Assembly (NCBI GenBank): GCA_044359815.1
Contig: JBIKLL010000076.1
Coordinates: 1 to 12,702 of the forward strand
DNA length: 12,702 bases
Direction of reading: 5' to 3'
Source: Pseudobdellovibrionaceae bacterium
Lineage (GTDB): Bacteria; Bdellovibrionota; Bdellovibrionia; Bdellovibrionales; Bdellovibrionaceae
Shown here: positions 224-11,215 of the stretch, one piece after another
How positions within the stretch are numbered: position 1 is the stretch's first letter
How the letters are laid out: each line of letters begins with the position of its first letter
Program-made: the position numbers and the translations under genes
Notes under the pieces: model-generated
Seen by the model: only the letters and a program-made list of their open reading frames with translations
Databases searched by the model: none
Told to the model about the DNA's origin: nothing

Positions 224-694
224 TTGTTGTTACTCAAGATTCTAGCCATTTTAAATCAAATGCTGTTTGCCGATGTGTCTGCCAGATTTGTAGGCTCGGA
301 TTTGACTAAAAATGCCGAAGTTATTTGTCATATTTATGGCGAAAAAATCAACGGTAAGTTTAATCCCTATTCAACGACGGGAATGTTAACCGTCAAAAAA
401 AATCCCAAACTCAAGTCGAATTTGAAGCTAAATATTTATTCTGACCTGCAAGGAACTCTGTTTAAATCCCACGATGTAGAATACGTTGAAAGCTCAGTGT
501 TTTTAATTTACCGAGGAGAACACGAGCAAATCGAACTATCGGCCCATACAGGTGCTGTGCGGATGAACAATGATGTTGTGGATGGCTATATTGGCGTTTT
601 GACTGATAAGACCTCTGTAACAAAACACATTTATTCGATTCAATGCATAGACCCCAAAGTAAGACATATTGATTCAGAAGATTTCGAAGATTAA
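224..694 (+). CDS. Hypothetical protein, probably secreted (156 aa)
   Basis: Open frame with TTG start preceded by GGAGG at 210-214. The N-terminus MLLLKILAILNQMLFA-D resembles a signal peptide. No recognisable family motif. Confidence 0.7.
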   Translation: MLLLKILAILNQMLFADVSARFVGSDLTKNAEVICHIYGEKINGKFNPYSTTGMLTVKKNPKLKSNLKLNIYSDLQGTLFKSHDVEYVESSVFLIYRGEHEQIELSAHTGAVRMNNDVVDGYIGVLTDKTSVTKHIYSIQCIDPKVRHIDSEDFED

Positions 695-1355: not shown

Positions 1356-1748
1356 ATGAAAACCATATCATCACTGATTTTAATGTGGCTTTTTGTCTTT
1401 GGATTAACTGGCTATACTAAACCCAAAGAAATTGAACATAAAATCTTGGTTATAATCGGTGATGAAAAAACAGTTTTTACCTTTGTCCCAGCAAAAAAGT
1501 CTGTCACATTAAAGGACCGCGCAGGTAAATTCAGTCAGTTCACACTGAACGATGAAGGCCTAAAACATTTTGAGGGTTTGTTTTCGCAGGATTTTGGACC
1601 CAATGATGAATTGGCAAAATGCCCACAAAAATATGTTCGTTATTCATCGGGCTCAAAGGTTGCCAAGGGCTGCATCGGTCGCCCTTCAAAAGCCGCCAGG
1701 GGGTTGACTGATTTAACCAACGCCCTATCAGGCTTGTTTGCCGACTAA
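1356..1748 (+). CDS. Hypothetical secreted protein (130 aa)
   Basis: ATG start and signal-peptide-like MKTISSLILMWLFVFGLTG. Two Cys near the C-terminus could form a disulfide. Confidence 0.75.
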   Translation: MKTISSLILMWLFVFGLTGYTKPKEIEHKILVIIGDEKTVFTFVPAKKSVTLKDRAGKFSQFTLNDEGLKHFEGLFSQDFGPNDELAKCPQKYVRYSSGSKVAKGCIGRPSKAARGLTDLTNALSGLFAD

Positions 1749-3791
1749 TTACCCTCGTGTTGTTCCAATCCCAATGGCACCTTTTGGATCCTTGATGATG
1801 GGATTACTTTGCCCTGGCGGAGCAACATTGTTTGGTGCGGGATCAGCCACAGGTGGGCATTGGTACAAGATTTCTAAAGTATGACCCACTGGAACTGGGA
1901 AATCTAAAATTATCTGATCCTTTTCAATCCTAAAACCATCGAAAATTTCGACCCCGTTGTCTTTTACGGTCACATCCACTGTTGACGGATCACCATCAAT
2001 GTCTTTGGGTACGCAATTTAAAATAAAATTCTTCTGAGCCAGTTCGGCGGTTCGGGCACCGATGCGCGACAACTGCCCCGCCCAATCGGTTTTACAAACA
2101 TCACCCAAAATCCCACCTGTCATATTGGCAATCTGAGTGTAAAGCTGACCTGGGTTTTCGTTCCTGTTTGGCCGACCTCCGCAATTGCCCACATCTGGAT
2201 AAGGCACGGTGATGGCGTTAAATACAAATCCCTTGGTATTACCCAAAGTGTTTTTAACTCCGTCCAGTAAATACTGTCCCCTTTGAACCAATGGTACGTG
2301 TGCGGAAACATTACTGAGGTTTTCATCTGCGTCAGAAACTACAATGATAGAAAAAGCAGCGTCTTGTCTGAAAAATTGCAAGCTTGGATCAGAGGCTGGA
2401 TCCCAACCAGCTGTTTGCAGCCAAGGTGTTTGCACATTTTCCGCTGATGAAAAGCCCTGATCTAATTTGTTTTTTAAATCTGTCGCAGCAGCACCCATGG
2501 TGGCTGACAAACTGGTACCTTGATTATTAAACAGCACAGATGAAATTCGACTGACTGTCATCATCCCCGATTGGCCCATAATATTTTGATTAGCAAAGCT
2601 TGCTCCAAACTGAGTCCAAATTGGCGTGATTGCGTTGTTCACGGCAGTCGTCAACGACAACGGTGATTGCTTTGCACGCAACATATTCAGCGTGTTTGAT
2701 ATCGAACCCATTTGAGAACCAATACTTGGACAATGGTAAGCTGCCCTGTCATAGCTTGTCCGAGTCACAGACCTGAAACTAGCCAACAGTGTTTTTAGCT
2801 CAGCCAACAAAGCTTGAACCTGTAAAATCTGGGCTTGGAATTCTGCCAGTGTGATCACTGGGACTTCAAGCGCTTGCTGGACCTGAGTGATTTTTGCATT
2901 GATTGGTGAAATCAATCGGCTAACAGTTGCAGATTCTAAATATGTTCGATCAGAAACACAGTTATTAAAAAATGACTGGGCCTGGTCCACTTTGCCCATC
3001 AAACCGCGGATGTTATCTTCCATATCCCGCTCTTTACTTTCGTTTGATGCCACAACTGCAGATAATAAACTACTTATAGAAGTTTTTATATTTGGATTAT
3101 TCAGATGTCTGGAGTTTCCAGCAGACTGCCTCATTGTTGCAAGATTGTTGGTAAAAGCTGTCAAGCCATCTTGAATTTTTACTATAACTGCTGTGGTTTG
3201 TTCTTTTAAATACTTTTGTTTGCTTTCAACAGCTAGCCCCTCGCTCAATCTGCGGATTGAATTAACAGCTGCCATCACTCCCTGCTCGCTACCACTGCCT
3301 CCAGTTAGCATGTCCAAGGTAGCATCAAAAGCTAACTTTCGATCCGTGGGATTCATGGTTGAATCAATATAGTAACCGTCAATACCTGGTCCTTTAAATT
3401 TTTTTAATAAACCACTGATCAAAGGAGTTGTGACATCAGTGGTAGTGATTGCCAGTCTCCAACTTAAGCCTTCTAGTTGTTGAAACATCGAAGACAATCT
3501 TTGCTTGATACTTTGATATTCAAATCCCATGGACCCAGAATCATCAACCACTAACAAAATATCTAATTTGTTGTCCCCACCTACGATGACCTTTGATTGA
3601 AATCCCAATGGAGTGAAAACATTGTTTGTAGCGGGTGGAGCTCCTGGTATGACTTCAGCTAATTCTAATTTTGTAAACTGAGCGGGACTGCAGTTTTGAA
3701 AAGCAGTCAATGAAACCAAGACTGATGTCAAAATTGATACACGCAAAACCGACGGAAACCTAATTGAATTGACCAAGTGTTTTACAGACAT
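1749..3791 (-). CDS. vWA (MIDAS) domain lipoprotein with a large internal helical insertion (680 aa)
   Basis: Hydrophobic leader ending in AFQNC (Cys34). MIDAS motif DILLVVDDSGSM, followed by RLAITTTD and GSGSEQG, and much later FFRQDAAFSIIVVSDADE. These motifs are typical of vWA surface lipoproteins of myxobacteria and Bdellovibrio (CglB/CglD-like), recognised from memory. Confidence 0.85.
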   Translation of the reverse strand: MSVKHLVNSIRFPSVLRVSILTSVLVSLTAFQNCSPAQFTKLELAEVIPGAPPATNNVFTPLGFQSKVIVGGDNKLDILLVVDDSGSMGFEYQSIKQRLSSMFQQLEGLSWRLAITTTDVTTPLISGLLKKFKGPGIDGYYIDSTMNPTDRKLAFDATLDMLTGGSGSEQGVMAAVNSIRRLSEGLAVESKQKYLKEQTTAVIVKIQDGLTAFTNNLATMRQSAGNSRHLNNPNIKTSISSLLSAVVASNESKERDMEDNIRGLMGKVDQAQSFFNNCVSDRTYLESATVSRLISPINAKITQVQQALEVPVITLAEFQAQILQVQALLAELKTLLASFRSVTRTSYDRAAYHCPSIGSQMGSISNTLNMLRAKQSPLSLTTAVNNAITPIWTQFGASFANQNIMGQSGMMTVSRISSVLFNNQGTSLSATMGAAATDLKNKLDQGFSSAENVQTPWLQTAGWDPASDPSLQFFRQDAAFSIIVVSDADENLSNVSAHVPLVQRGQYLLDGVKNTLGNTKGFVFNAITVPYPDVGNCGGRPNRNENPGQLYTQIANMTGGILGDVCKTDWAGQLSRIGARTAELAQKNFILNCVPKDIDGDPSTVDVTVKDNGVEIFDGFRIEKDQIILDFPVPVGHTLEILYQCPPVADPAPNNVAPPGQSNPIIKDPKGAIGIGTTRG

Positions 3792-4208: not shown

Positions 4209-4634
4209 CTATTCTCGCACCGAGACTGTTACATAAACTGATTTTAAAGATCTGACATTGTGCTTGTAACCCACAACTCCGATTTGTTCAGCGCACACTG
4301 TTTTGTGCAAATCAACCACCCTGTAAGTCTGTATACCTAAAGCTTCAGCAGGAATTGCTGCTGGCCATACATTGCCCTCGGTGTCTCTGATCCAAAGCTC
4401 TTTCAGCCAAAATTTTGCGTTGGCTGAACGGCCTTCTGCAAAAGTTTTCACTCTGATTTGGTCAAAGCATAAACCCTGAGCCTCAAAACTGACCAATCGC
4501 AGATTTGATTTGTTAAAAACCACCACGCCCAGATCCATCCACTGATGAGAAGGCTTGTCAGTTTTTTTAAAAACTTCAGCAAAAGCAGATATTGATACAG
4601 AGCAGATTAATAGGGCACAAATGATGGTTTTCAT
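4209..4634 (-). CDS. Hypothetical secreted protein (141 aa)
   Basis: Start re-assigned to ATG 4634, which has AGGAGA upstream (4641-4646, minus strand). This gives a classic signal peptide, MKTIICALLICSVSISAFA-E. Confidence 0.8.
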   Translation of the reverse strand: MKTIICALLICSVSISAFAEVFKKTDKPSHQWMDLGVVVFNKSNLRLVSFEAQGLCFDQIRVKTFAEGRSANAKFWLKELWIRDTEGNVWPAAIPAEALGIQTYRVVDLHKTVCAEQIGVVGYKHNVRSLKSVYVTVSVRE

Positions 4635-4706
4635 TGGAAATCTCCTTATAAAATTAAAGTGCTCACCTCGTACCATAATGATCCTAAAGAGCAAGCTATT
4701 ACCTGT

Positions 4707-4763: not shown

Positions 4764-7292
4764 ATGAGTATCAAAAATCAAAAGGGCTTATCCTTAATTG
4801 AAGTTTTAGTTTCCCTTCTCATTTTAGGACTGCTGACCGCTGGTGTCCTGTCCATGCAAAAATTAGTTTTTTCTAACGATTCTCGTGAAGTCAGTCTGTG
4901 TCGCAACACTTTGACAACCATGTTGGAAAACCTGAAAAATCATGGACAAGCTGGGTTTATTTTTGATTGGCAACCTGGGTATTTTGGAACTCGGTATGTG
5001 CCGCTGCAAAACGGATCCTATCCCTATCCGGCCATGACCGATGAAACTATCGACAACAATTTTAGGTGGCCACAAAATAACAATTACGCAGTATTAACCG
5101 GCGGTTTTGCCACGCCAGCACCCTCTGAAATTGGCTCTGGAAGATGGGTCAGTTTACCGACCACCTCGACTTCAACCACTCAGAGGACTCCAACAATGGC
5201 CGCCACAGGCTCTGAAGAAGTTTTGAAAAGCTCCATACTAATTGATTCTTACATGAATCAATTGCTGGCTCTGTATAATTCAAACACCGAATCCTTTTGC
5301 GAAAGTGAATACGGCCATGAAATTGTTAAAAATGGCGCTCTGACTGGGTTTCCAAAATGGGCCTTGGGCAACGTTGAAAATTTACCGGGCAAAGACAGCT
5401 TTAGTGTTAAACTGCATATTGAACCCAGATCTTTCACAGATCCCAACTCATCTTTGGCCTCAAAAAAATGTCCAACCAATTTATCCATTGTGCCGATGGG
5501 GTTTTTCACTCAAACAGCCTATGATGATCCCTCGGCTGATTTAACCCAACCTTACAACCAAGCTTACGTCCACTATGCAAAAATCGTAAGAGGTTTGAAT
5601 TCACTGGCAAACCTGTCTGACAACAATACTGTGCGTGATGTGGGACTGCATGTATCACTCCGCGGGGAATTTAATTCAACAGCTGATGCCAACAACAAAG
5701 TCGTATGTGAAATTTCAGATTTTTTAAAATACGACTCTGATATCGGAAAACCAAAATCTCCTAGAATCGAAGTCATTGAAAATTCCAGCTTTGATTCCTA
5801 TTTGTCAAAAATCGAAGACTGCACAAATTCAGCCCCTAACAGCAAAGTGAATTCACTGCGAGTCAGAGTAAACTCACCCGCAGACCAAGAATCAGGAACT
5901 CAATTACTGTGCTTGGATAATTCGTTTTACATCGTAGGCACCGAGGGCTGGACCTATCAAAATACAACACTGGGGAGCTATTTCAATTATCCCAACACTG
6001 AACCTTTCATCACAGCGGGTGTAAACAATCAGAACATAAAATTACCTCCGAACGATGGCTCACTATTCAGCTACAAAAAAATCCGCATGGTTCCGCCTAA
6101 ATGGGTGGGATGTGAAAGCGTCACTGCTTGTGGGGTGCAAGCTTACGGAGTAATGATGGGTGAAGGCGATAATCGCCCCTGCCCTAACGAAAAATTTTGC
6201 ATCGATTTATTGTTTAATACCAATGATGCCAACCGGGTATCCAGGGGTTGCTATGTGGATATTAAAGCCGTGGCCGTCGATACAGCCGGCAATATGTCTG
6301 AGATAATCTCGATGCCTGTGTCGACTGAAATTCCAAATTACATGTTTCCCTATGGTGGAGCTGCTGATTTAACTGCTTGTGGTGATTCGTGCGCGGGTTT
6401 GACCTATTACCCCGTTGCCACAGTTGATATCCCAAACACCAGATATCACTGCCCGGGCGGAGCGGGCACTTCCCCGACGACTTCAACCACCCTGGCCAGC
6501 ACGACCACAGTGCCTGTGGGCATACCAACAACCACAGTGCCCACTGGAACCACCTCGCCTACGGGAACCACTTCACCCACTGGAACGACTTTGCCTGGCC
6601 CAACCACAACAGCAGCCACACCAACGACTTCACCTCTACCAACCTCACCGCCGCCCACATCACCACCGGATGACCTGCCACCCGACTACGATATTGGGTG
6701 CTTACCAGCAGATTCGAAAATTTCATTGGCTGATGGCAGAGTTAAATCCATAGATCAAATTCAAAATGGTGATTTAGTTGTGGGATACGATGAAAGATTA
6801 AATCTGCCTGTGATTCAGAAAGTGCAATCACTGATTGTTCATGAACCCAGGATGCAAAGGTTTTTTAAATTTCATTTGGCCGATGGGACTGAATTTGAAT
6901 CCAACAGCATTCACCCGGTCTATATTCCCAAATATGGTACCTACAGATTTGCTCAGGATTTATATTGGGATTTCTTCCATGATAACAATCTTCAATTGTT
7001 AAATTCCCAAAAACAATTGGTCGGCGTTGTCAGCGTATCAATCACGGACCGTTTTGAGTCTGTTTACAATTTACACTTAGCAGGGCAAGACAATTTACCT
7101 GCTAATTCGCAACTATCCCCCAATTACCAATTAAGCTGGGGATATGGCCATAGTTTTTTTGCAGACGGGATTTTAGTGCATAATTCATGGGCCAGTCAGT
7201 TTGTTTTTATAAATGGGATTTTAAAACCTCTGCCCTCACAAGCTTTCCGCTTTTGCACTCGATCCGGCTGCGTAAAAAATGTCATTCCATAG
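4764..7292 (+). CDS. Prepilin-type N-terminal cleavage/methylation protein with Thr/Pro linker and C-terminal Hint (intein-like) domain (842 aa)
   Basis: Class III signal NQKG|LSLIEVLVSLLILGLL with Glu at +5. Cys-rich body with the Ig/Fn3-like strand AVDTAGNMS, then a T/P-rich linker. Hint domain from Cys646 (CLPADSKISLADG) through NSIHP (His717) and VYNL to HSFFADGILVHN807, followed by Ser808. Confidence 0.9.
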   Translation: MSIKNQKGLSLIEVLVSLLILGLLTAGVLSMQKLVFSNDSREVSLCRNTLTTMLENLKNHGQAGFIFDWQPGYFGTRYVPLQNGSYPYPAMTDETIDNNFRWPQNNNYAVLTGGFATPAPSEIGSGRWVSLPTTSTSTTQRTPTMAATGSEEVLKSSILIDSYMNQLLALYNSNTESFCESEYGHEIVKNGALTGFPKWALGNVENLPGKDSFSVKLHIEPRSFTDPNSSLASKKCPTNLSIVPMGFFTQTAYDDPSADLTQPYNQAYVHYAKIVRGLNSLANLSDNNTVRDVGLHVSLRGEFNSTADANNKVVCEISDFLKYDSDIGKPKSPRIEVIENSSFDSYLSKIEDCTNSAPNSKVNSLRVRVNSPADQESGTQLLCLDNSFYIVGTEGWTYQNTTLGSYFNYPNTEPFITAGVNNQNIKLPPNDGSLFSYKKIRMVPPKWVGCESVTACGVQAYGVMMGEGDNRPCPNEKFCIDLLFNTNDANRVSRGCYVDIKAVAVDTAGNMSEIISMPVSTEIPNYMFPYGGAADLTACGDSCAGLTYYPVATVDIPNTRYHCPGGAGTSPTTSTTLASTTTVPVGIPTTTVPTGTTSPTGTTSPTGTTLPGPTTTAATPTTSPLPTSPPPTSPPDDLPPDYDIGCLPADSKISLADGRVKSIDQIQNGDLVVGYDERLNLPVIQKVQSLIVHEPRMQRFFKFHLADGTEFESNSIHPVYIPKYGTYRFAQDLYWDFFHDNNLQLLNSQKQLVGVVSVSITDRFESVYNLHLAGQDNLPANSQLSPNYQLSWGYGHSFFADGILVHNSWASQFVFINGILKPLPSQAFRFCTRSGCVKNVIP
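6501..6593 (+). repeat. Coding tandem repeats in the Thr/Pro linker
   Basis: Two TTTVP units (6501, 6528) and three degenerate 18-nt units encoding PTGTTS/PTGTTS/PTGTTL (6540-6593). Confidence 0.8.
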
Positions 7293-7400: not shown

Positions 7401-8882
7401 TTAAGACCTTTTGTACAGTGAAAGAGCCTTATCCCTTTGGACCGAATGATTGACTATGGGTTTGGGATAACCCCCAAGGCTTCGATCAGCCTCAGGATCA
7501 TGCAGATCAGATGCTGGAATTTTTGATAATTCGGGAATATATTTTCTGATATATTCCCCAGTAGGATCAAATTTTTCGCTTTGTAACCAGGGATTAAAAA
7601 TTCTAAAATAAGGCTGCGGATCACAACCCGTCGAAGCCGCCCATTGCCAGCCCCCATTATTGGCGGCCAAATCGCCATCCAAAAGCTGTTTCATAAAATA
7701 ATTTTCACCAAGCTTCCAGTCGATCAATAAATCCTTAGTCAAAAAGGACGCCACAATCATTCGTACCCGGTTATGCATCCAACCCGTTTGATTGAGCTGT
7801 CTCATCCCCGCATCCACAATTGGAAATCCAGTTAAACCCTGGCACCATTTTTTAAAATAGGTCTGATTATTTTCCCATTGGATATTGCGAAACTGTGGCA
7901 AAAAACTTTGTGATTCCACATCGGGCCTGTGATGCAAAATCGAATAATAAAATTCACGCCAAGCCAGCTCTTTTAAAAACACCGACTGACCCGTCCCGTC
8001 CTGAAAATTTAATTTATTCAGTTGCAATAGGTTCATCGCTTGAACTGCACTTAAACTGCCATTTTTAAAATACACTGATAATCCAGAAGTTCCATTTTCA
8101 GAGGGAAAATCGCGATGAATTTTGTAATCTGAAATTCTGCTCTTAAATTGCTCAAGCCTGTCGTAAGCCACTGAAAACCCAGATTCTGGAATGGAAATAC
8201 TGACGTTTTTAGAATTTTCAGCAATAAATGCATCCAAAGAATCTTTAATAAACCCTGAATCTAATACGTCAGTCCATTTTAAATTAAAAATTTGCTTGGG
8301 TGATTTTGAATTTAAATTTTCTAAATATTTTTTACCACTGCTGCAATTTTGAATACGTTTTTGAATATTAGGATTTTGCAACAGTTGAAACCATTTTTTG
8401 GCATAGGGACTGTAGACCTGATAAAAACCATCGTCTTTTGTAACCTCCCAAGGTTCAAACAAAACATGATCTGGCTCGGTGATTAAATTTATTCCTAGGC
8501 TTTTAAAATAGTCCGACAATTGTTGGTCGCGGTCGTTTGCAAAAGGCTCGTAATCCCGATTAAAGCTAATCGTTGACGGCATATTGTTTTGAAGCTTTGA
8601 AAATATCAATTTAAAAGCTTCCAAGGGTCTGGCATCAACCACCAACAGATCCCCACCCAAACTTTGCATTTCGGATTTAAGTTTTTTGAGACTGTTTAAA
8701 AAGAAGGCGAAACGGTTGTGTGAAAAATCACTTCTGGATAAAAACACAGAATCAAAGCAAAAAATCCCCAATACCCTAGATTGATTCAGACCATGGTTTT
8801 TCTTGAGTGCCAGATTATCAGGTATCCTCAGATCCCGTCTGAACCAATGTATTCCCCATGATTGATTTTTTGATGTATTCAT
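7401..8882 (-). CDS. phrB: Deoxyribodipyrimidine photolyase, class I CPD type (493 aa)
   Basis: Motifs [50 protein letters not shown] and [30 protein letters not shown]. Trp-triad equivalents are present (IQW, IDW, GGWQW). Confidence 0.95.
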   Translation of the reverse strand: [493 protein letters not shown]

Positions 8883-8920
8883 CGAAGCATTTATATATCA
8901 ATTACCAACAAAGTAAATTT

Positions 8921-9369
8921 TTTTTCTGCACCCATCTACAATTGGCCCACTTGTCTGTTGTAAATTTGAATTTTAAAAAAATATTTCTATGATTTTACAC
9001 CTTGTGAATACTTGCTAACGGCCGCAAGCTCATCTCTCGTATTGCATAAATGCAAAGGTAATTTGTTTTTACTGTTTTTAGACACATACAGCGAGCGTGC
9101 GGGGCATATCTCGTGTTGAGTCATTATATAAAAGCAAAAAAATTGCTTTTATATAATGACTCAACACGAGAGATGAGCCCGCGGCCGTTAGCGAGTGTCT
9201 AAAAATAGTGAAAAAATTATGTTTGCATTTACGCAACACCAGATATGCCATGCGCGCTCGCAAATGTATTCACAAGGTGTAAAATCATAGAAATATTTTT
9301 TTAAAATTTAAATTATCCGCAGAAACAAACCACAGACAAGTGGGCCAATTGTAGATGGGTGCAGAAAAA
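8921..9369. repeat. ~450 bp nested imperfect inverted repeat (non-coding)
   Basis: Perfect stems: 8921-8958/9332-9369 (38 bp), 8969-9011/9266-9308 (43 bp) and 9109-9137/9143-9171 (29 bp, 5-nt A loop). Imperfect stem 9042-9085/9195-9236. All checked base by base. Confidence 0.95.
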
Positions 9370-9567
9370 CCAGTCGGAACATAAAAATATTTGTATTTTT
9401 CAGATTGACAGTATCAATCGAGTCATCGCTCTAAGTTAACTTCCTAAAATAATTCAAATTTTTTCTGACCGAAAGCTTTATCATAATAACCAAAAAAAAT
9501 CCTAACCGAATCGGAATTGAGTCTTTATCGTTTTAAGAACATCAATGAAAAAACTTCAGGAGGTTCT

Positions 9568-10206
9568 ATGATCAGTACAAAATTAAATTCCAAATCAATG
9601 GCTGAGGCAAAAAACAGCAGCCCGATTTCAACCAGAAAAATTGTTTCACCCGAGAACCTGAATCCTAACAACACATTATTTGGTGGAGCTTTAATGTCCT
9701 GGATTGATGAAATTGCCTTTATGTGCGCGCGCAGGTTTTCAGAAAACTCCAGATGCGTAACGGTTAATATAGATAATATTTCATTCAGAATGCCCATCAG
9801 GTCAGGGGAACATGTGATACTGACAGCATCTGTGGTGTCTGTTGGCAAAACTTCAATGGAAATCGAAGTCGATGTGTCTAAGGAACTGCACAATAGCGGT
9901 GAGATCATTCACACAAACCGGGCTTTTTTGACTTTTGTCAGTTTGGATGAGAAATCAAAACCCATAGCCGTGCCTAAACTGAAACTAGAAACCGAGGATG
10001 AATTTATTAAAAACCAGCAATCACTGATTCGAAAAAAGGTCAGATTGCGGCTGAAGAATTTCTTTTATAACAAAATGAAAAATCAAACTTATATAAATCA
10101 AAAAGACTCTCAAAAAACTTTATCAAAAATATCACTGGAGAACATTATTTCTGAAATCAGCAAATACACTTGGCTTAGCAAAAACATGCAAATCTTCAGG
10201 AAGTAA
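9568..10206 (+). CDS. Acyl-CoA thioesterase, hotdog fold (YciA-like), 212 aa
   Basis: Motifs NPNNTLFGGALMSWIDEIA, VTVNIDNISFRMPI, VGKTSMEIEV and LTFVSLDE. ATG 9568 is preferred over TTG 9517 because AGGAGG lies at 9558-9563. Confidence 0.9.
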   Translation: MISTKLNSKSMAEAKNSSPISTRKIVSPENLNPNNTLFGGALMSWIDEIAFMCARRFSENSRCVTVNIDNISFRMPIRSGEHVILTASVVSVGKTSMEIEVDVSKELHNSGEIIHTNRAFLTFVSLDEKSKPIAVPKLKLETEDEFIKNQQSLIRKKVRLRLKNFFYNKMKNQTYINQKDSQKTLSKISLENIISEISKYTWLSKNMQIFRK

Positions 10207-10282: not shown

Positions 10283-11215
10283 TTAGAGAGGGTTTTCTGG
10301 AACTAATGGTGGGAAGAAATACAGTGAGCCAAAGGCCCGCTCGTAGTTTGCCCGTGTGTTCACACCATCAAAATAAGTTGGATTTTGTCGACTCAAGCCA
10401 ATCACGTGGTTTCTTAGCGTCACGACGATTTCCTTTGAAATATCTCTGTAAGCAAATGGCCCACTAGTCGGCTGGCAATTGGCATCAGTGTTCATCAATG
10501 CTTCTGAACACCACCTATAGTTTTCAGCAGGTGTGTTGATAAAATATCTTACAGTTACACTGAATTTTAACGACGACGCCCTTTGGGTGCTGGGTTGCAA
10601 AACCACATCAGCTGAAAAATCAACCAGTCTGTCTACAAAAATTCTGCTGTAATCAGCGGTCAAAACCGTATCAGCACCTGGATCAAAAAATAAAACTCCA
10701 GATTTTGCAGGGGTTGGCTTCATATAATAAAGTGCTGTTCGCCTGAAATCACTAACACCATCAGCAGACTTATTGCCCTCTTCTCGGACCCAATAGGCAA
10801 TGGCATCGACATTTGCCCCTGTGTTCAAACCTGACAATGAATTTGCCCCAGTGGCATCATCCACGGTGTCCAGAAATTCATTCATTGCCGGCACTCCTGA
10901 TTTAACTATTCTCAATCCGATGGGCAGGCTGGTTAAGTCTGCTGGGTTTTCCAGAGTATTGTCACCCACAGCATAAGTAAAAAATCTTCTTAAATAATAC
11001 TCGGATCTCATTAGACTATCGTCTGCTGCCGACATTTCTGAATTTTTAAAATAAACATTCTGCGAACGCATGGTTAATTGCGAAGCCAGCAAAACAAAAA
11101 AGCCCAAAATACCCAAGGCAACCAATGATTCAATTAAAGACAAACCTTTTTGATTGTTGAGACCATTCTGACTGCTCAGATACTTTAGAATGTTCGGGCA
11201 CTTAAGGTTTTTCAT
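10283..11215 (-). CDS. Prepilin-type N-terminal cleavage/methylation protein (minor pilin/pseudopilin, PilW/GspJ-like), 310 aa
   Basis: NQKG|LSLIESLVALGILGFFVLLA class III signal with Glu at +5, followed by an amphipathic helix, a beta-rich domain and a C-terminal Cys pair. Confidence 0.85.
   Translation of the reverse strand: MKNLKCPNILKYLSSQNGLNNQKGLSLIESLVALGILGFFVLLASQLTMRSQNVYFKNSEMSAADDSLMRSEYYLRRFFTYAVGDNTLENPADLTSLPIGLRIVKSGVPAMNEFLDTVDDATGANSLSGLNTGANVDAIAYWVREEGNKSADGVSDFRRTALYYMKPTPAKSGVLFFDPGADTVLTADYSRIFVDRLVDFSADVVLQPSTQRASSLKFSVTVRYFINTPAENYRWCSEALMNTDANCQPTSGPFAYRDISKEIVVTLRNHVIGLSRQNPTYFDGVNTRANYERAFGSLYFFPPLVPENPL

Follow-up and report, generated by a model that had tools for sequence, protein, structure and literature searches.

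What does it mean when a palindrome carries some of its internal modules in exchanged order between its two arms? The question is raised by an imperfect palindrome of 449 nt at positions 8921-9369 of the window, by which we mean the whole stretch of DNA that was analysed, the entire 12,702-bp contig C91 of a 2.95-Mb genome (125 contigs, 41% G+C, completeness 91%). The palindrome occupies a divergent gap between two gene starts, that of a photolyase gene (7401-8882, minus strand) on its left and that of a 4HBT thioesterase gene (9517-10206, plus strand) on its right. Folded as single-stranded DNA, it reaches -169.6 kcal/mol, compared with -47.3 +/- 4.9 kcal/mol for 100 shuffles (z = -25). A first-pass annotation had reported that module C (9012-9044) matches the reverse complement of 9162-9194 at 29 of 33 positions and that module E (9091-9118) matches the reverse complement of 9234-9261 at 24 of 28, both without gaps. 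These counts are exact. The next-best reverse-complement match of C within 8900-9400 is 15/33, and that of E is 17/28 at 9162-9189, on the related C' module. The resulting order B-C-D-E-F-F'-C'-D'-E'-B' is therefore real and, by the match scores and the folding z value, far beyond chance. A separate repeat search independently returned the crossed pairs (I3, 8993-9044/9162-9213; I6, 9091-9121/9231-9261) together with the inner mirror pairs (I5, 9031-9067/9211-9247; I7, 9066-9085/9195-9214; I4, 9105-9137/9143-9175) and the outer mirror pairs (I1, 8954-9011/9266-9323; I2, 8921-8961/9329-9369).

The answer lies in the other copies of the element. On comparison of these copies, the 9012-9261 segment is best described as the core of one long-form member of a lineage-specific, genome-wide family of nested hairpin repeats. 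A blastn search of the genome with 8901-9400 (E <= 1e-5) yields 104 merged loci, 19 of them touching contig ends, which together cover 25,831 bp (0.88% of the genome). Two modules recur in them, X (the C of the window copy) and Y (its E). Scanned with mismatches allowed, the genome yields 123 X, 98 Y and 28 long-Y variants, which always occur in tight clusters. The basic unit consists of a variable outer stem, X, a variable inner hairpin, Y' and the other strand of the outer stem. Short forms of ~170-280 nt have exactly this composition, with a hairpin of the type GTCAT...ATGAC, and contain neither X' nor Y. Together, X (5' strand) and Y' (3' strand) form a conserved asymmetric junction between two helices, which we call J. 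Pairing between the two halves of J runs through a common 14-nt core and the short helices beside it, and the internal loop that they surround is fixed, with TAACGGCC facing GCGCTC. The helices on either side of J may change in sequence provided that their pairing is kept.

Long copies contain a second J, nested within the first in opposite orientation, and D/D' is the helix between the two junctions. The order C-D-E...C'-D'-E' thus arises automatically, and each DNA strand carries one sense-oriented J. Each of the 26 full copies in the alignment has the order B X D Y F F' X' D' Y' B', either as written or reverse-complemented as a whole; counted more strictly, the genome contains 26 complete long forms and 30 two-module units. 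Since all 26 complete long copies keep the swapped order, as does one complete copy from a related contig of a metagenome, this order is a fixed architecture of the family and not a peculiarity or an isomer of the window locus.

The window copy can be read in these terms from its ends inwards. The outermost left arm O (8921-8953) begins with 22 nt that are specific to this copy and pair with 9348-9369 (I2, 41 nt, 98% complementary); this 22-mer occurs in the genome only at 8921 (plus strand) and 9348 (minus strand). In four copies, including that of the window, the palindrome runs into sequence that is unique in the genome to its two arms. The outermost right arm O' (9324-9369) has a 13-nt insertion relative to the left arm. 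The left outer stem B (8954-9011) is homologous among copies and variable, and its changes are mirrored in its partner, the right outer stem B' (9266-9323; I1, 58 nt, 91%). In this outer helix (helix 1), 47 of 63 pairs show changes on both sides. B is followed by module X (9012-9044, plus strand), the 5' half of the outer J, which is present in its 'AA' variant, TTGCTAACGGCCGCAAGCTCATCTCTCGTATTG, and whose alignment columns are nearly invariant. Next come stem D (9045-9085), which is invariant among long copies and pairs with D' (9195-9233) through I5 and I7, the linker ATACA (9086-9090) and module Y (9091-9118), which on the minus strand is the Y'-type 3' half of the inner J in its 'CC' variant.

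The central hairpin (9119-9161) belongs to a short, 43-nt class and consists of the stem strands F (9119-9137) and F' (9143-9161) and a loop (9138-9142). Its stem differs among copies with compensation (alignment columns 180-192), and in the window copy changes in Y and X' extend the central stem to 33 nt at 97% (I4). On the other side of the apex lie X' (the C' of 9162-9194), which on the minus strand is the X-type 5' half of the inner J in its 'GG' variant, stem D' and Y' (9234-9265, with E' at 9234-9261). Y' is the plus-strand 3' half of the outer J and is of the short variant, followed by an AAAT linker. C and E share the core CAT(C/A)TCT(C/G)GT(G/A)TTG, which can be read directly in the sequence, and the internal loops of this copy form two complementary pairs, TAACGGCC/GGCCGTTA, which are exact complements, and GAGCG/CGCTC.

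The family obeys a strict grammar. Neighbouring modules occur genome-wide as X+Y- (29), Y+X- (27), X+Y+ (26), Y+X+ (22), X-Y- (25) and Y-X- (25) pairs, and X+X+, X-X- and Y-Y- neighbours are absent. The inner end of arm B always joins X (64 cases) or Y (60 cases). A single Y+Y+ pair was found, in a long-form copy at C22:2330-2600, where a long-variant Y replaces X and the outer junction is Y/Y'; this copy is symmetric because Y stands in the X position. It is degenerate (seven mismatches), is the sole case among ~60 outer junctions and looks like the product of one arm copied onto the other. Nesting is also seen in other composites, in which a whole short element, arms included, sits inverted in the apical hairpin of another; by reading of the maps, such composites occur on C83, C95, C61, C14, C106, C52, C20 and C6. 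Truncated and deleted copies are common.

Within this grammar, certain parts vary freely. Central hairpins fall into 43-nt and 65-nt classes, and 55 of the 60 found are distinct. Y' exists as a short variant or as a long variant in which a small hairpin segment replaces CATGC; the long variant makes up 28 of the 126 Y-type hits (for example C50:9127 and C99:15683), and the window copy has the short variant at 9248-9252. Apical loops occur in both orientations, the rarer being seen on C93 and C13. We also considered whether old hairpins had been colonised by a young core and rejected this scenario, as arms never occur without J among the family loci of the genome.

Which pairing does evolution maintain in these elements? 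In an alignment of 25 long copies (24 from the genome and one from a metagenome), X, D, Y, X', D' and Y' are near-invariant, and strong variation is seen in the outer stem and midway along the central hairpin. The RNAalifold consensus of these copies is the straight hairpin, with 158 pairs and 97.8% of cells paired. Fifty-nine of its pairs are changed on both sides, compared with 32.1 +/- 2.7 in column shuffles and with 20-28 double-change pairs in slid controls, and none of 500 shuffles reaches the observed value on any of five measures. The same holds outside the long form: 19 of 52 pairs are compensated among 16 short copies, one of them within the 14-nt core of J (C33), and 451 of 500 departures of the outer arms from the family consensus are mirrored in both arms, as counted in the 40 of 47 outer arm pairs that are comparable without gaps.

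Even the near-invariant junction changes in a coordinated manner. The tail of Y' pairs with the first nucleotides of X, and there columns 68/356 and 69/355 are U-A in 21 copies and switch jointly to C-G in four, fitting the straight hairpin. The haplotypes of the two halves covary as well (TT..AA with CC..GG; AA with AT, and GG with CC). In the 90 J units compared, the X variants AA and GG accompany the Y' variants AT and CC, and the exceptions seen are two GG copies with a long Y' and one AT variant of X.

The crossed pairing behaves differently. The first-pass annotation had proposed that the complementary loops pair with each other to form a pseudoknot, a paranemic crossover or a two-state switch. 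In the 25 long copies, the crossed pairing shows one double-change pair, which 365 of 500 shuffles match. In the alternative X:X'/Y:Y' pairing, 92% of cells do pair, because reverse-complement copies must pair, and the C:C'/E:E' complementarity of the long form exists because the same module is present twice in opposite orientation. These pairs are disrupted at the sites that vary: of 25 cells, 14 are unpaired at columns 168/319, 14 at columns 172/315 and 4 at columns 68/272. The changes that break C:C'/E:E' restore the straight hairpin, one example being the change of C to G in Y' opposite X. Moreover, short forms are devoid of X' and Y, and therefore selection on the family cannot be acting on the knot-like complementarity. 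Apparent pseudoknot complementarity within a palindrome can thus arise simply from one module that occurs twice.

The family is restricted to this lineage in every collection searched. A 25-mer of X has no exact counterpart among 185,579 species genomes, and when the element is compared by blastn with 40 relatives, of which 24 belong to other genera of the same family, the only matches are four AT-rich ones of 25 nt, all in one genome. A search with a covariance model built on short copies gives 62 places in this genome and no hit in any of the 40 relatives. No description of such repeats in Bdellovibrio-like bacteria was found in the full-text literature searched.

One metagenome scan provided eight short contigs. 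Their unique flanks share 88-96% identity with this genome, and they therefore represent orthologous loci of a near relative. At two of these eight loci (L021 on C110 and L028 on C49), the arms are the same and the core is reversed and of another type. At L025 on C113, the element is nearly identical and the central hairpin is a different family variant. Other orthologous loci differ in the long or short variant of Y' or in inner structure, and at four orthologous loci this genome has a long Y' where the metagenome relative has a short one. These differences suggest exchange or inversion of cores between copies and between inverted arms, which we treat as a lead because short-read assemblies that run through more than 100 near-identical repeats may contain chimeric paths. 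J itself is near-unchanged at structure-sharing orthologous loci, with identities of 89/90 and 56/58 compared with ~91% for the flanks. Such conservation could reflect host-level selection, i.e. function, rather than selfish spread. Four lake-metagenome assemblies compared with 8500-9800 yield short pieces only, dominated by paralogous copies and none of them long enough to cross the element, and the joint from 9044 to 9234 that appears in them is the short form of other loci.

Where in the genome do the elements reside? With genes called crudely as the longest non-overlapping ORFs of at least 90 aa, the context of the 78 loci of at least 150 nt was assigned; 27 of them cannot be classified owing to a flanking gene missing at a contig edge, and two overlap an ORF call. 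The 49 classifiable elements lie predominantly at gene 3' ends, with 31 in convergent, 15 in tandem and three in divergent gaps, the window copy being one of the last three, compared with 256 convergent, 712 tandem and 363 divergent gaps genome-wide. Many elements take up nearly the whole gap, leaving 5-60 nt to the stop codon on either side. The ends of the palindromes are ragged and copy-specific, and neither a target-site duplication nor an empty site could be defined in the sample, which consists of filled sites.

Simpler readings of the locus do not match. No T-run follows the palindromes and one weak terminator-like site was found, so that we rejected a terminator. The seven weak sigma-70-like sites, compared with 3.4 +/- 1.8 in shuffles, are not conserved in the arm subfamilies, and a promoter was rejected likewise. 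An ORF of 61 aa (9078-9263, minus strand) has no Pfam match and would be broken by the 13-nt and 22-nt length variants found elsewhere. HIP1 or a cyanobacterial origin was also rejected. Rfam 15 gives no match in the window at gathering thresholds, and in 8850-9450 it returns only generic miRNA-precursor hairpins, the best of which scores 56 bits against a gathering score of 245.

Elsewhere in the window, 4764-7292 (plus strand) and 10283-11215 (minus strand) encode proteins with a prepilin-type N-terminal methylation motif, and the 842-aa prepilin-motif protein has a weak match to the Hint module (25.6 bits, below the cut-off of 29.7). Four further ORFs, at 1749-3791 (minus), 224-694 (plus), 1356-1748 (plus) and 4209-4694 (minus), encode 130-680 aa and match no Pfam family at E <= 0.001.

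We propose, with moderate confidence, that the family consists of REPIN- or MITE-like hairpin elements whose J, in hairpin or cruciform DNA, is recognised by a putative enzyme and which have been spread and reshuffled by recombination. On this view, the elements would be mobile or recombining DNA of a non-autonomous kind, with insertion into hairpin tips and recombination, both between copies and between the inverted arms of one copy, as the means of spread and rearrangement.

REPINs are REP doublets that form hairpins and are mobilised by RAYT Y1 transposases, and the cited part of their description gives them ends that are conserved and a spacer hairpin that varies, with compensatory changes being common (Bertels & Rainey 2011, PMC3116915). 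As far as that account goes, the J family resembles them in being extragenic, in its ~100 copies, in its conserved inverted blocks around a compensated hairpin spacer, in its higher-order arrangements and in a hairpin that an enzyme may recognise. It departs from the same account in several respects. X and Y' do not look like inverted copies of one REP, as they have nothing beyond the 14-nt core (11/14 complementary) in common and each is extended differently; outside the conserved blocks there is a further stem, also long and variable, in an element of 170-600 nt; and the elements nest in strictly alternating orientation.

The family also shares with REP-RAYT systems an extragenic, over-represented distribution, often between convergent genes, and REP and SPRITE elements are biased to convergent gene ends in the part of PMC3184786 that treats them. 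According to the same part, MITEs such as Correia/NEMIS, ERIC, bcr1 and RUP/BOX/SPRITE are, like the J family, non-coding, AT-rich, intergenic and palindromic throughout, with modular variants that contain internal insertions or deletions, and bcr1 shows compensatory changes (PMC3184786). One argument against mobility is that the conservation is the reverse of that in a classical MITE: variation is greatest at the termini and the core does not vary, whereas MITE terminal inverted repeats, as portrayed there, are conserved and bound by the transposase. In addition, the family has no conserved terminal inverted repeats in common with an autonomous IS, and no parent IS was found.

A third class of hairpins offers a parallel in how specificity is stored. 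attC sites and the ends of IS200/IS605 elements are imperfect hairpins in which unpaired bases carry the specificity, the stem is variable and the structure is conserved. The J family shares this idea of a structure that is kept with a stem sequence that is free. J, with its 33 + 28 nt, is far larger than the determinants of attC or IS608, and unlike attC sites, J copies are dispersed singly between ordinary genes rather than in cassette arrays, and no TnpA is linked to them. The first-pass annotation had suggested that one and the same bulged motif is offered on either DNA strand to an enzyme that recognises hairpins, loosely like REP or attC sites. The motif on each strand fits the anatomy described here, and this suggestion comes close to our best reading; the enzyme half of the suggestion found no counterpart, as no such enzyme was identified.

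The search for an enzyme partner covered several transposase families. PF07282 (TnpB), PF13358 (DDE_3) and PF01609 (DDE_Tnp_1) were not found in the genome at its completeness of 91%, and a search with PF01797 (Y1_Tnp) identified nine places. One of them is a RAYT-like Y1 gene (C8:9501-10160) flanked by inverted copies of a different 25-nt repeat, and thus a cognate RAYT flanked by the repeats of the J family was not found. None of the 50 hits of this 25-nt repeat lies within 150 nt of any J locus. The other eight places are paralogues of a divergent HUH/Y1-like protein of 206-211 aa (C23:186-821, C48:48162-48797, C56:2966-3616, C47:11949-12584, C49:93316-93951, C100:633-1268, C125:2378-3013 and C8:23373-24140). 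These paralogues share 86-92% protein identity, and the protein scores 23.9 bits on PF01797 and does not reach the cut-off of either NCBIfam model. Conservation among the paralogues is limited to the ORF, and each adjoins tandem arrays of ~4-14-nt units, e.g. CTAACTAT or CCGATTC. No X or Y module lies within 1.2 kb of the eight, and B-arm pieces alone occur near the C56 and C48 copies. Homologues are present in 24 of the 40 relatives, which are without the J family, and are multi-copy there, with up to 17 matches. No link between these Y1 or RAYT-like genes and the J family was seen in any of these comparisons. Three small contigs bounded by elements (C115, C97 and C102) hold housekeeping genes only, namely an acyltransferase, an FGGY kinase, an ABC transporter, YebC and a pseudouridine synthase.

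The RAYT-like gene on C8 is of interest in its own right. It scores 34.8 bits on PF01797 and lies in a second, unrelated repeat element (C8:9476-10289, locus L011) with a ~32-nt terminal inverted repeat that starts with AAAAGAGACCGTACGACTTTTTCTG. Elsewhere, repeats of the AAAAGAGACCGTACGACTTTTTCTG type form plus/minus pairs ~95 and ~270 nt apart, and there are 50 hits genome-wide. This second family looks like a classical REPIN/MITE-with-RAYT system.

The main rival to the mobile-element reading, possible in our view and yet unlikely, places the function in RNA at gene 3' ends. Read-through transcripts would fold into the hairpin, and J would be where a host protein or RNase binds or processes them, for end formation or stability; the long form would then offer a sense J to the transcripts from both sides of a convergent gene pair. 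The excess of convergent over divergent positions and the filling of gaps nearly up to the stop codons are in line with such a role, functional RNAs typically combine a junction that does not vary with helices that covary, and the conservation of J beyond that of the flanks at orthologous loci points in the same direction. Orientation in tandem gaps, where single-J copies have J in the transcription sense in four of four cases and nested copies divide four to five, would also agree, in a sample that is too small to weigh. The absence of a T-tract after the palindromes and of an Rfam family at gathering thresholds argues against this role, and the window copy itself sits between two gene starts.

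Wobble pairs also fail to single out an RNA strand. Among the arm mismatches, G.T types number 14 on the J strand and 17 on the opposite one, and 18 mismatches are of other types, so that the sense strand has no excess of G.U-compatible mismatches. The constraint therefore looks strand-symmetric, as expected for DNA, and is compatible with RNA too. Finally, we know of no described role for near-perfect double-stranded RNA hairpins of 200-600 nt that are present in ~100 copies.

More doubtful is an extended version of the mobile-element reading, in which J is the recognition module of an undescribed hairpin-specific enzyme that mediates invasion of hairpin tips in the opposite orientation, while cores are exchanged or flipped between locus-fixed arms. 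If so, the spread of the family would differ from that of a classical MITE, tip invasion, always in opposite orientation, would produce the self-nesting, each locus would act as a cassette holder, and the long form would be selected for its one sense-oriented J per strand.

Another rival, which we regard as improbable, assigns J to the host chromosome as a DNA-level site that, as a cruciform or duplex, would bind a nucleoid protein, gyrase or recombinase for chromosome organisation in the manner of a BIME. The invariance of J on both strands, the strand symmetry of mismatch types and the extragenic, convergent-biased location would be in keeping with such a site, and BIMEs bind IHF, Pol I and gyrase according to the relevant part of PMC3184786. 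A family carried by none of the 40 relatives would be odd for a housekeeping role, no candidate protein was found, and deleted and truncated copies are frequent.

The weakest alternative, a switch in which the C-D-E core flips via D/D', as the first-pass annotation had also envisaged, or in which the loops pair as a pseudoknot, paranemic or two-state structure, draws on the complementarity of the crossed modules and their loops and on inversions at other levels of the family (apical loops and the whole cores at two of eight orthologous loci, both known from short-read assemblies), but it is very improbable and already largely refuted by family comparison, given that none of the 26 long copies is in the D/D'-flipped order and both orientations of that segment, as in an invertible DNA switch, were not encountered, that the neighbour pairs X+X+ and Y-Y- are missing, that the crossed pairs do not covary and that short forms exist without C' and E.

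The abundance of these elements touches on how long palindromes are maintained. This 3-Mb genome tolerates palindromes of 200-600 bp at ~50 sites, and SbcD (TIGR00619) was not found in it (at 91% completeness). In the same genome, with its ~50 near-perfect palindromes of this length, SbcC (TIGR00618) gives a 24-bit N-terminal match only. This result may bear on the tolerance of palindromes.

Hairpin repeats of the REP, REPIN and MITE kinds are common in bacteria, and the enzyme and the unit of selection are known for few families. The J family has an unusually clear grammar, with one invariant asymmetric junction, symmetric change in the stems and nesting that always alternates, and its cores are possibly swapped between locus-fixed arms. 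Owing to this clarity, the family is a good case for finding the recogniser of a bacterial hairpin repeat and for learning whether such repeats are parasites, transcript-end signals or both.
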